Positions 1,497 to 4,597 of a stretch of 64,000 nucleotides of DNA are shown here, piece by piece. The notes below the pieces were generated by a model, which made no database searches, was not told the DNA's origin, and was given only the letters and a program-made list of their open reading frames with translations. Source of the DNA: Longimicrobiales bacterium (lineage in GTDB: Bacteria; Gemmatimonadota; Gemmatimonadetes; Longimicrobiales; Gaopeijiaceae); the NCBI GenBank assembly GCA_963664435.2, contig CAXXKM010000001.1, forward strand, positions 960,001 through 1,024,000. Direction: 5' to 3'. The position numbers were made by a program, and so were the translations under genes. Position 1 is the stretch's first letter. Each line of letters opens with the position of its first letter.

Positions 1497-2549
1497 TCAG
1501 GCCTGAGAAGGTTTGCGAGCCAGAAAACAGTACAGCGGCGTGAAGATACCCGTCTTGCCGCCCGCAACATACGCCTCCGCGGTCCGATCGAGGAGCCGGA
1601 CGACTTCCGCCGAGCCATTCGGAAAGATCCGCAGCAGCTCGGCCAGCTTCGATCCCGCGATGATCGCCTTGCGGCCCCACGGAAGCCTTCTCAAGGCGTT
1701 CCCCAACGTCCCGTGGCGACTCTCCATGGGCTGATACCAGGGCGTGGAGGGTCCCTCCTGTACGTCCCAGTCCCTTCCCTCGATGACTTGAAATCCCGCG
1801 GCTTCGAGCGCGTGATTCACTTCCTCGAACGTGGCGATGTCGTGCAGCGCGATACCGCGCATGAGATCCTGCTTGACGGCCCGGTGCCGACCGTCGTTCG
1901 GATCGAACCGGTCCGTAAGACACATTTCCTGACCCCAGAACAGGGCACCCGGTTTCAGCACGCGGAATATCTCCGCGAAGGCACGCTGCTTGTCCTGCGC
2001 ATGGCATGTTGACTCTATGGCGTAACCCCGGTCGAAGGTGTCGTCCTCGATGGCGCTCATGTCCATGAAGCTGCACCCTATCAAGTCCACCAGGTGTTCG
2101 AGCCCCGCCTCGGCGTTCAACTTCTTCGCTTGCGCCAGCTGGACCTCATTGATGTTGATACCCACGACCCTGGCGCCGGTCTCGCGGACGACGCGGCGCA
2201 TGGGGCCGCCGATCCCGCAACCAACGTCGACCACCGTCATGCCCTGTTCCAACTCCAGCTCGGCGATCATCGCGCGCTGGTGCCGGACCTTGGATTCCTT
2301 CAGACTTTCATGAGGCGTAAGGGGCGCGAAATGCAGGGATTCACCCCAACCCCACACCATGAAGCCGTTGCACAGCTCGTAGTATTCCCTGACCGTTTCC
2401 GCGTGGTCGTAGCCGCCGGCGTCTCCGGTCTCCGGCACCGCCCGGTCGACCCAGCCGTTGAAGTATCGCACGCGACGCGCGACGCCCGATCCGCGGTACG
2501 CGTCCCTCAGCGCTTTCGACAGTTCGCCCAGTCGGATTCGGTGCCTCAA
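1497..2549 (-). CDS. Sterol C-24 methyltransferase-like (SMT/ERG6 family) SAM-dependent methyltransferase
   Basis: SMT regions WGWGESLHFAP, VDVGCGIGGP, YAIESTCHA, EIFRVLKPG; Sterol_MT_C-like end GGKTGIFTPLYCFLARKP; TTG start overlaps the P450 stop (TTGA). Confidence 0.88.
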   Translation of the reverse strand: MRHRIRLGELSKALRDAYRGSGVARRVRYFNGWVDRAVPETGDAGGYDHAETVREYYELCNGFMVWGWGESLHFAPLTPHESLKESKVRHQRAMIAELELEQGMTVVDVGCGIGGPMRRVVRETGARVVGININEVQLAQAKKLNAEAGLEHLVDLIGCSFMDMSAIEDDTFDRGYAIESTCHAQDKQRAFAEIFRVLKPGALFWGQEMCLTDRFDPNDGRHRAVKQDLMRGIALHDIATFEEVNHALEAAGFQVIEGRDWDVQEGPSTPWYQPMESRHGTLGNALRRLPWGRKAIIAGSKLAELLRIFPNGSAEVVRLLDRTAEAYVAGGKTGIFTPLYCFLARKPSQA

Positions 2550-4597
2550 GCGGGCAGCTCACGCCGCTGCTCCGTGATGCGGAACTTCAGCTTCTTGCTG
2601 GGCTTCATCGACGGAAACGGATTGAATTGGAGCTTCCGCGCGTACTTCGCCGGCGACACCTCAATCGTGAAGTGATGCGCCAGCATCAGCAGGTTGACCG
2701 TCAGGTGCATCTCCATCCACCGCGTGCCGAGACACCTGTGCGTGCCCAGCCCGTACGGGGCGAACCCGAGGCTGTCATACTTCTTGCGCGACGGCAGGAA
2801 GCGGTCGATGTCGAACTTGTGGGGCTCGGGAAAGACGTCGCTCATGTAATGCGTGGCGGTCATGGCGATGTGGATCCGTTCCCCCAGGGGCAGCTCGTGG
2901 TTCTCGACCACGCAGGTATTCATCACGTTGCGAACCGACATGGTCACGATCGGGTACATGCGCAGGCACTCCATGAGGAAGCGGTGCGTCACGTCGATGT
3001 TGGCGGGGGTGAAATCCTCCTTCCCGGGATCGCCGTTGGCGAACAGGGCATCCGCTTCGGATTGGATCCTGGCGTACAGGTCCGGCTGCGACGCCATGGC
3101 GTAGACCATGAGGCTGAACGTATCGCCGAGGTACACGCTGGCAATCAAGGCTGCGGAAAAAGAGAAGAGCAGGTTGGACTCCGGGAGAAACTGCGGGTCG
3201 CTCGCGTGCAGGCTGAGATAATCGTCCACCAGGTTCCGCGGGCCGTCCGCCCGTTGGCCGGGCGTGTTGACCTGCAACACCCGTTCCATCAGGGTGTCCA
3301 GGGCCTTCGCCCGGCGTTTCATGCCCGGGGTATTCAGCGTGAACCTGGGCAGGAGTCGGGCGATATGCACGCTCAGGGCCCGTTCCTTGTACGTCATCAG
3401 GTCGTCCATGAGATCTTGCGTATCGACGCCGATGAACAGCGGTGAAAGCTGGGCGTTGACGAACGCCCGGGACATGGACGTGGCGCGGTAGGAATCCCCA
3501 ACCGTCAAGCTCGCCATGTATGCGCGGCCCCTGTCGTAGAGCTGATCCATCTGCCCTGCCAGCCTCGCCTGGGAATAGGCCGGCGCCAGGAACTTGCGAA
3601 GCCGGAAGTGATCGGCGCCGTCCAGGGCGGGAAGGACGCCGGCCGCACCGTACACCTTCTCGAAATCGCTGAAGTAGTCCCTGGTTCTCAGGTGCTGCCG
3701 CCCCTGCTTGTGCACCCAGCGGTTCGTTTCGAGTCCGGCCAGGAAGATCAGGGGCTTCGAGAAGGGAGGGCGGACACTGAACACCGGGCCGTATTCCTCC
3801 GCGAGGTGCCCGAATAAGGCGTTCAGGTTGCCGTCCCGAATATGCGGGTTGGCCAGTAGCTTGCGCAGCGGAACCGTCGGAATCTTCTTGGAAAGAGCGG
3901 AATGTCTGCGGATTGGGCCGACGAGATTCCGAGAGACCGCATCGGCAATGGACCGGCCGATCAAGTCCATCTGGCAGACGAACTTGATGCGCTCCTCCGC
4001 CTTCTCATCGAGTTCAAAAATCAGGCGAAAGACGTCGCACGTATTGACGAGGCATACGATGACGACGTCTCTGGGGTCGGGAATCTGGTCGGTGAAGAGG
4101 ACCTTGCCGATCCGCGCCTTGATGAACCGGTCGGGCGTGCCTTCCGCAGACATCCCGTACTGTTGCCCATGCAGGACGGTGGGGGACAGCGTCCAGAATT
4201 CGCCTTCGTGGTGTTGGAGGATATCCCGTTCAACCAGGCGCGCCAGAGTAATATCGATGACCGACTCCGCACGGGACGCGAGCCGTTCGATCCAGTACCG
4301 GGCAGTGTGCTGTTCCGGTGCGTCCACGATTTCCCGCAGGAAGGGGTCCAGGACGGGATCGCCCGTTTCGGCCGGGTCCACGGCGAACAGGGATGTCAGG
4401 TCCGAGTCGAGCCGCGACCGGAAGGAGAGTTCCGCCAGCACTCCGCCGACGACGGCGCAGTTCAGTTGCCAGCCGGGTACCTGATGGAAGTAGCCGCCCT
4501 TCTCGTCGAGAAGCATCAGGATGAGTTCGTCGACCAGGCTCAGGGGTTCACCCGTCGAACTTTCCGCCGTCTCCGCCGTTTTTGCCCTGTCAGTCAT
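2546..4597 (-). CDS. GPP34/GOLPH3-family domain fused to cytochrome P450
   Basis: N-terminal LSLVDELILMLLDEKGG...VGGVLAELSFRSRL...LARLVERDIL (GPP34-like); P450 ExxR (ECLR), FDIDRF meander, heme motif YGLGTHRCLG; ATG 4597 chosen (GGAG upstream). Confidence 0.82.
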   Translation of the reverse strand: MTDRAKTAETAESSTGEPLSLVDELILMLLDEKGGYFHQVPGWQLNCAVVGGVLAELSFRSRLDSDLTSLFAVDPAETGDPVLDPFLREIVDAPEQHTARYWIERLASRAESVIDITLARLVERDILQHHEGEFWTLSPTVLHGQQYGMSAEGTPDRFIKARIGKVLFTDQIPDPRDVVIVCLVNTCDVFRLIFELDEKAEERIKFVCQMDLIGRSIADAVSRNLVGPIRRHSALSKKIPTVPLRKLLANPHIRDGNLNALFGHLAEEYGPVFSVRPPFSKPLIFLAGLETNRWVHKQGRQHLRTRDYFSDFEKVYGAAGVLPALDGADHFRLRKFLAPAYSQARLAGQMDQLYDRGRAYMASLTVGDSYRATSMSRAFVNAQLSPLFIGVDTQDLMDDLMTYKERALSVHIARLLPRFTLNTPGMKRRAKALDTLMERVLQVNTPGQRADGPRNLVDDYLSLHASDPQFLPESNLLFSFSAALIASVYLGDTFSLMVYAMASQPDLYARIQSEADALFANGDPGKEDFTPANIDVTHRFLMECLRMYPIVTMSVRNVMNTCVVENHELPLGERIHIAMTATHYMSDVFPEPHKFDIDRFLPSRKKYDSLGFAPYGLGTHRCLGTRWMEMHLTVNLLMLAHHFTIEVSPAKYARKLQFNPFPSMKPSKKLKFRITEQRRELPA

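Follow-up and report, generated by a model that had tools for sequence, protein, structure and literature searches.

A GPP34–cytochrome P450 fusion from Longimicrobiales with a replaced phosphoinositide pocket, a shortened I-helix and sterol-type gene neighbours

What is the function of a GPP34 domain, homologous to the phosphatidylinositol 4-phosphate (PI4P)-binding eukaryotic proteins GOLPH3 and Vps74, at the N-terminus of a bacterial cytochrome P450? This question is raised by a gene in a stretch of 64,000 nucleotides of a Longimicrobiales bacterium (Gemmatimonadota; assembly GCA_963664435.2, contig CAXXKM010000001.1, positions 960,001 to 1,024,000), the whole of which we refer to as the window. 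A preliminary description of the window had recognised a GPP34-like domain and a P450 in one uninterrupted open reading frame (ORF) and had proposed that GPP34 targets the enzyme to membranes in place of a transmembrane (TM) anchor. Here, we confirm that the GPP34-P450 fusion is a genuine single protein and a further member of an already published architecture. We lean, by a modest degree, towards a model based on sequence comparisons and a predicted fold, in which it is a cytoplasmic enzyme tailoring a host-derived sterol, with the product being exported and GPP34 acting as a packed accessory domain.

Pfam profiles recovered both parts of the fusion, i.e. GPP34 (PF05719) at E 4.3e-28 and 99 bits against a cut-off of 29, covering profile positions 1-198 of 201, and p450 (PF00067) at E 6.8e-35 in the C-terminal part, which bears out the two-domain frame described before (Table 1). 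The GPP34 domain itself is present, but its size, put at roughly 220 residues, had to be corrected to about 200 residues plus about 15 disordered N-terminal residues. An assembly chimera is ruled out by contigs of two independent runs (X1, 3698-4445; X7, 3764-4014) bridging the domain junction at window positions 3841-3934 gap-free and by the presence of both Pfam domains in 119 of 120 listed homologues (68-92% identity, 96-100% coverage), the fusion being found in independent contigs as well as in relatives. An AlphaFold2 model, computed from an 81-row alignment after omission of one locus row with an internal stop, shows two domains at a predicted local distance difference test (pLDDT) of 89.3 and a predicted template modelling score (pTM) of 0.87, the latter suggesting, as indirect evidence, that GPP34 and P450 pack in a fixed way. 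The ATG of the fusion is preceded by the ribosome-binding-like sequence GGAGAG, and a promoter and terminator scan at the locus gave signals at chance level only.

The architecture is that of GPP34_L, defined in sponge symbionts as GPP34 plus P450 by Ferreira et al. (2025, Microbiome 13:4, PMC11706023), who count 1381 GPP34 proteins in sponge symbionts and among them 656 with GPP34+P450, these 656 being part of 663 long forms and all originating from sponge symbionts, and who find GPP34_L in 92.6% of 54 symbiotic Gemmatimonadota genomes. The earlier view of bacterial GPP34 as mostly stand-alone and of the fusion as unreported is thereby overturned. The window protein shares with GPP34_L the domain pair (PF05719 and PF00067), the habitat, the phyla and the occurrence in several copies per genome. 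A sponge metagenome label is carried by 7 of the 9 runs that contain at least half of the sequence words, and the nearest relatives of the fusion are labelled Longimicrobiales or Ca. Palauibacter (Gemmatimonadota). This genome encodes four GPP34 proteins, two of which are fused to P450; the second fusion (L002, G000 C1:882881-884845) shows 30% identity, has a canonical acid-Thr I-helix and lacks sterol-type neighbours. The proteins P0135 and P0188 carry two GPP34 domains each, in one case followed by a P450 (872 aa) and in the other without P450 (444 aa), an arrangement we did not notice in the overview of architectures given by Ferreira et al. (PMC11706023). While GPP34_L is treated there as one group, our comparison sets apart a subclade with a short I-helix, no PI4P ligands and a sterol-type cassette. 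We found no description of the pocket loss, the short-I-helix clade or the sterol-type cassette in the open-access literature.

The first of these features concerns the GPP34 domain. A profile of the N-terminal domain (15 rows) found only GOLPH3 and Vps74 in the PDB, in all five matches (3KN1 at E 2e-16, 9QPQ, 2ZII, 2ZIH and 4TU3), with the homology to GOLPH3 extending over profile positions 3-197 of 212, i.e. nearly the entire domain; this identity is drawn from sequence profiles, the fold searches being filled by the P450 domain. In GOLPH3, PI4P is bound by W81, R90, R171 and R174 together with a β-hairpin, as defined with double mutants (Wood et al. 2009, PMC2806290). When aligned by profile to human GOLPH3, the fusion has V40, V50, E111 and I114 at these four positions. 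All 36 close relatives, by which we mean the alignment rows above 50% identity, have V/L, V/A/I, E/D and I/V there, without a basic residue at any of the three arginine positions; an invariant tryptophan, W43, lies three residues off the W81 position. The hairpin is short in the AlphaFold2 model, an E-G-E turn joining strand 127-130 to strand 134-137, its tip reads H-D/E-G-E/D with a D/E-G-E/D turn conserved in model and alignment, and a projecting hairpin with a hydrophobic tip, as in GOLPH3, is predicted to be absent. The net charge of the domain ranges from -12 to -25 in the close relatives with a mean of -19. The fusion thus contains a domain homologous to that of GOLPH3/Vps74 but differs in being bacterial and fused to an enzyme, with other residues in the PI4P pocket and, in the model, an acidic hairpin tip.

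The replaced pocket, the short acidic hairpin and the acidic domain together make both the published effector function and a GOLPH3-style anchor misfit the fusion. Ferreira et al. propose secretion of the GPP34 protein into the host, where it would bind PI4P of the phagosome and block phagosome maturation, and leave the role of the P450 open; in their data, GPP34 is enriched in symbionts of sponges, with expression in 45 of 107 metagenome-assembled genomes (PMC11706023). The homology to GOLPH3/Vps74 is real and a resistance-nodulation-division (RND) pump adjoins the fusion, which would suit such a role. With the four pocket residues replaced in every close relative, a strongly acidic domain, an N-terminus that is not signal-like and a gene that overlaps a methyltransferase gene, we regard a secreted effector as very unlikely for this protein. 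A P450 furthermore needs a cytoplasmic electron donor, which also speaks against secretion. The effector model may hold for short GPP34 proteins, as the two stand-alone GPP34 proteins of this genome (L001, G000 C1:73773-74363, and L003, C3:1556437-1557057) keep R174 and a hydrophobic hairpin stretch.

According to the second explanation, which had been put forward for this gene at the outset, GPP34 takes the place of the TM anchor found in sterol P450s of eukaryotes and attaches the enzyme to the inner membrane. That the P450 lacks a TM anchor was borne out: we detected neither a signal-like N-terminus nor a TM segment in the fusion, the highest 19-residue hydropathy being 1.9 and falling within the GPP34 core. 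GPP34 occupies the N-terminal position at which eukaryotic P450s carry their anchor, sterol-type substrates lie in membranes, and contact with a membrane could be made via a different surface, i.e. a conserved FW pair at residues 134-135 (the tryptophan being present in 36/36 close relatives) and a basic linker with six K/R and zero D/E. Such an anchor by another surface is compatible with the tailoring of a sterol. Targeting in the manner of GOLPH3, in contrast, is not supported by sequence and model: of the two devices by which GOLPH3 binds membranes, the basic pocket is gone and the hairpin has an acidic tip in the model, and the mean charge is ill-suited to anionic bacterial membranes. We consider GPP34 as a substitute anchor unlikely on balance.

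The second feature is located in the P450 domain. The haem cysteine C622 is present in all 36 close relatives, and E543 and R546 are present in at least 90% of the 81 alignment rows. All 36 close relatives have an I-helix segment of 33 residues with an ASVYLGD-type centre and no acid-threonine pair, whereas the distant fusions (<33% identity) show this pair in a 34-residue segment in 32 of 39 rows. The I-helix of the window clade is one residue shorter than that of AGxDT-type fusions, and the short form reaches fusions down to about 40% identity. As judged from the alignment, the short-I-helix clade has lost one residue together with the acid-alcohol pair at the oxygen-binding groove. In general P450 chemistry, a missing acid-alcohol pair points to substrate-assisted or non-hydroxylating chemistry, and the fusion P450 probably acts without normal threonine-assisted O2 activation. 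An identity as CYP51 sterol 14-demethylase was rejected, the P450 domain being 19% identical to Methylococcus CYP51 and the His-Thr of the CYP51 I-helix differing in the alignment. The window encodes a further, stand-alone P450 with a canonical I-helix (47645-48952, plus strand).

The third feature is the genomic context. On the minus strand of the window, the genes follow in the order Rieske oxygenase with KshA_C domain, RND pump, fusion and a divergent member of the sterol methyltransferase (SMT) family, the fusion stop and the SMT start overlapping by 4 nt. Relatives of the fusion are encoded by 304 GTDB stretches; using tblastn, we counted neighbours within about 8 kb at 76 GTDB loci from the best 80 of these stretches, some loci being cut by contig ends. 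A cassette-type SMT is found at 63 loci and the Rieske-KshA_C gene at 66, with either of them at 73 and both at 56. These are accompanied by a flavin adenine dinucleotide (FAD) oxidoreductase (41/76), an RND transporter (38/76, one of these distant), an MMPL/sterol-sensing transporter (33/76) and an ERG4/ERG24 reductase (7/76). The carriers are labelled Gemmatimonadota, Latescibacterota, Chloroflexota, Binatia, Acidobacteriota and Rhodothermales, and the enzymes stay across phyla while gene order and exporter type vary. This genome contains the FAD oxidoreductase (83% identity) and the ERG4/24 protein (81% identity) far from the window. As a control served 20 hand-picked loci from a search of the phylum, 11 with short-I-helix and 9 with distant fusions (29-33% identity). 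At the former, close RND genes were found at 9, Rieske genes at 6, FAD genes at 3 and any of these at 10 of the 11 loci, with no SMT near the fusion at any of the 11; none of the 9 distant fusions has an SMT, Rieske or FAD neighbour. The deep link of the short-I-helix clade is therefore to pump and Rieske oxygenase, the SMT belonging to a sub-branch. Locus L133 encodes two tandem short-I-helix fusions (63% and 40% identity to the window protein) between RND and Rieske genes.

The SMT and the Rieske oxygenase are the only matches to Sterol_MT_C and KshA_C in this genome. The SMT combines Methyltransferase and Sterol_MT_C domains and has Regions II-IV (DxGxGxxGP, E195, G217). In Region I it shows M81, V82 and L89 instead of Y81, E82 and F89 (Erg6 numbering) and N78 in place of T78, with W85, H90 and F91 being kept. 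M81 and L89 are found in 50 of 50 cassette SMTs and V82 in 48, position 78 being N or S, whereas T, Y, E and F are retained by three of three canonical SMTs of these loci. Loci L019, L021, L024 and L010 encode a canonical SMT (Region I Y81-E82), which at three of them lies beside a divergent cassette SMT. Brown and Welander list T78 and F89 in a set of 25 residues that functional C-24 SMTs conserve, and of 11 SMTs without activity on desmosterol, 7 show such departures (bioRxiv 10.64898/2025.12.19.695621). The cassette probably does not encode an ordinary C-24 SMT, and a changed regiochemistry is plausible by analogy to a nematode C-4 SMT which lacks the Region I aromatics (PMC6997595), and sterol methylation in vitro was shown for symbiont SMT homologues (PMC10070321 section 7). 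No motif match to the cassette SMT type was obtained in the searchable supplements of Brown 2023 (6 of 7 files).

The best solved relatives of the Rieske oxygenase are 3-ketosteroid 9-alpha-hydroxylases (KshA; E 5e-22, PDB), and its neighbour clusters in the Atlas include one named cholesterol 7-desaturase at a tied score; an identity as SdmA was discarded at 34 bits against a cut-off of 600. The KshA relationship, along with sponge steroid degraders and divergent KshA clusters being known (PMC5790920), would fit a use of Rieske oxygenase and P450 to start steroid breakdown via the 9,10-seco pathway for carbon. Methyltransferase and exporter misfit such catabolism, no HsaC-like ring-cleavage dioxygenase was matched in this genome with TIGR03213, the one family searched, and no ring-cleavage gene recurs among the neighbour clusters scanned. 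Steroid breakdown therefore appears highly improbable.

Concerning the origin of the substrate, the genome, which is 96% complete, has no match to squalene or oxidosqualene cyclase (PF13243), by which a de novo sterol cluster of oxidosqualene cyclase (OSC), CYP51 and ERG24 is excluded. A strong cyclase match was obtained for 29 genomes of the 76 carriers, of which 28 are labelled Chloroflexota and none Gemmatimonadota or Latescibacterota. At 25 of 28 cyclase loci examined the DxDD motif of squalene-hopene cyclases is present, and one frame of 1135 aa is OSC-like. Most carriers seem unable to make sterols. One alternative is a cassette that tailors and exports a non-sterol lipid, i.e. a hopanoid, another isoprenoid or a methyl-branched fatty acid. 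All three enzymes are divergent, including SMT Region I and the P450 I-helix, squalene-hopene cyclase is present in most Chloroflexota carriers, MpaB/Lcp-type oxygenases lie next to two related short-I-helix fusions (L128:5761-6969 and L133:2635-3753), and the FAD protein presumably resembles enzymes of methylated fatty-acid pathways. As Gemmatimonadota and Latescibacterota carriers, this genome included, lack a strong cyclase match, hopanoids would not be their own product; moreover, Sterol_MT_C, KshA_C, the sterol-sensing domain and ERG4/24 point independently to sterols. We regard a non-sterol lipid as a doubtful substrate. The link to sterol or lipid chemistry anticipated in the preliminary description is upheld by the sterol-type methyltransferase, the KshA-type Rieske oxygenase and the sterol-sensing/MMPL or RND neighbours.

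The model of sterol tailoring that we lean towards takes the substrate to be a sterol because of the families of the neighbours, and to be host-derived because no cyclase was found. The fusion, with no signal or TM segment, would work in the cytoplasm on a sterol of the sponge host, performing one step of a tailoring-and-export pathway together with the Rieske oxygenase, the divergent methyltransferase, the FAD oxidoreductase and the RND pump. The P450 would most likely desaturate or oxidise the sterol with help of the substrate, and perhaps make or use a side-chain double bond needed by the methyltransferase. The AlphaFold2 model predicts packing of GPP34 against the P450, where it would act as a cap for lipid handling or protein docking rather than as a phosphoinositide anchor, and the product would leave via the RND or MMPL pump. 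Such a pathway might serve detoxification, the building of membranes or a supply to the host.

Several points weigh against this model. Sterol tailoring by the fusion is read from sequence, gene context and a predicted fold, and pTM is indirect evidence for a fixed GPP34-P450 interface. In the fold searches, CYP46A1, CYP184A1, CYP51 and CYP120A1 tied at Z 35.6-36.7 with 17-20% identity, and the P450 shows 16-19% identity to solved structures, so that the fold names no P450 substrate. Sterol C-22 desaturases may likewise lack the I-helix threonine, a precedent which a literature check did not confirm. The SMT deviates at T78 and F89, hence at no fewer than two of the 25 positions that functional C-24 SMTs conserve, so that it may act on something other than a sterol side chain, and its absence from all 11 further short-I-helix loci means that it is not an obligatory partner of the whole clade. 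The KshA_C domain also covers non-steroid enzymes, and the missing cyclase matches among the 76 carriers, given without completeness, are no proof of absence.

Known systems resemble the cassette in part. The steroid clusters of Ircinia symbionts (Kelly et al. 2022, PMC9531527) and the SMT clusters of Brown et al. (2023, PMC10070321) are likewise found in sponge symbionts of many phyla, show horizontal spread and contain SMT and ERG4/24-family genes, but as described there they make sterols de novo (OSC, CYP51, ERG24, SdmAB). The window cassette, in contrast, has no cyclase, a P450 that is not CYP51 and an SMT without the Y81-E82 Region I. GPP34 is absent from the main text of Kelly et al. (PMC9531527), the terms 'Golgi', 'P450' and 'Rieske' gave 0 matches in Brown et al. 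(PMC10070321), and 'sterol' and 'methyltransferase' have 0 occurrences in the main text of Ferreira et al. (PMC11706023). C. elegans, a sterol non-producer, remodels dietary sterol with the Rieske desaturase DAF-36 and the SMT-family enzyme 4-SMT/STRM-1, which lacks the Region I signature aromatics (PMC6997595); this is an analogy only, the window SMT keeping W85, H90 and F91. The sterol C-22 desaturases CYP61/CYP710 are side-chain P450s working with SMT and ERG4, and are membrane-anchored by a TM helix (PMC7972189), unlike the fusion.

As to the occurrence of the fusion, a match at E 1e-30 or better was found in 41 of 301 genomes of the phylum, short forms included, and in 5 of 127 genera; among nine genomes of the same genus, five have a close fusion and four only a short GPP34. 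In a quick tree of 72 rows with submitters' labels and no clade test, 8 of the 76 loci being omitted as short or stop-containing, the closest grouping of the window protein, at a support of 100, comprises one sequence from Vicinamibacteria and two from Longimicrobiales, and the phylum labels require 9 changes against a minimum of 5, which suggests horizontal transfer but does not prove it. In a more far-reaching form, to which we assign a low probability, a mobile cassette in sponge symbionts of at least six phyla would take up host sterol, remodel it and pump out the product, using a P450 without the normal oxygen-activation residues, a Rieske oxygenase and an SMT of new regiochemistry, e.g. 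for a C-26/27 side-chain extension as in aplysterol and the 26-methyl biomarkers.

Table 1. Positions of the fusion, its domains and the genes of the cassette; window numbering unless a genome contig (G000) is named.
Feature	Position	Strand	Remarks
GPP34-cytochrome P450 fusion gene (GPP34_L type)	2546..4597	minus	683 aa, no internal stop
GPP34/GOLPH3 domain (aa 21-221)	3935..4537	minus	Pfam; PI4P-pocket residues replaced, net acidic
P450 domain (aa 253-670)	2588..3841	minus	ExxR aa 543-546, haem cysteine aa 622
Non-canonical I-helix centre (aa 486-492, ASVYLGD)	3122..3142	minus	alignment
Divergent sterol-methyltransferase-family gene (SMT)	1497..2549	minus	350 aa, Sterol_MT_C domain, TTG start
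RND (AcrB-family) transporter	4848..8081	minus	1077 aa, upstream of fusion, same strand
Rieske oxygenase, KshA_C domain (KshA / cholesterol-7-desaturase superfamily)	8255..9385	minus	start codon approximate
FAD oxidoreductase	G000 C3:615415-616770		
ERG4/ERG24-family reductase	G000 C1:1131741-1132877		

Further observations concern the surroundings of the cassette and of related fusions. Just past the SMT, an inverted RND-gene remnant of 120 nt (1364-1482, plus strand) is 87.5% identical to window positions 7271-7390; a similar remnant at locus L014 was also found, and the remnant at the cassette edge suggests a past duplication or rearrangement. Positions 69-1355 (plus strand) encode a lipoprotein-like protein with Ig-like (Big) and Spondin_N domains, homologues of which lie near GPP34-P450 fusions at L014, L128, L139 and L142. 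The distant fusions L135, L142 and L143 adjoin a sulfotransferase (three loci) and genes for synthesis of 3'-phosphoadenosine 5'-phosphosulfate (two loci), through which sulfated lipids or sterols might be formed, and L137 and L140 have an acyltransferase in place of the sulfotransferase. A 1358-aa ORF at 15743-19819 (minus strand) has no Pfam match at E 0.01, shows by eye a Walker-A-like motif near its N-terminus and possibly encodes a STAND-type NTPase.

For this subclade of GPP34_L, the sequence is at odds with the published idea of a PI4P effector, and candidate substrates and partners can be named from the gene context. Should the cassette indeed act on host sterols, it would provide candidate enzymes for unusual sponge sterol side chains, bearing on the sponge-biomarker debate, as well as a first biochemical role for GPP34 in bacteria and a natural clade of P450s whose I-helix is short. 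If the less probable mobile cassette with an SMT of new regiochemistry were true, some of the 'sponge' sterols that serve as fossil evidence of early animals would be made by bacteria, and GPP34 in bacteria would be an accessory module of P450s, a hint that eukaryotes may have gained the PI4P binding of GOLPH3 later.

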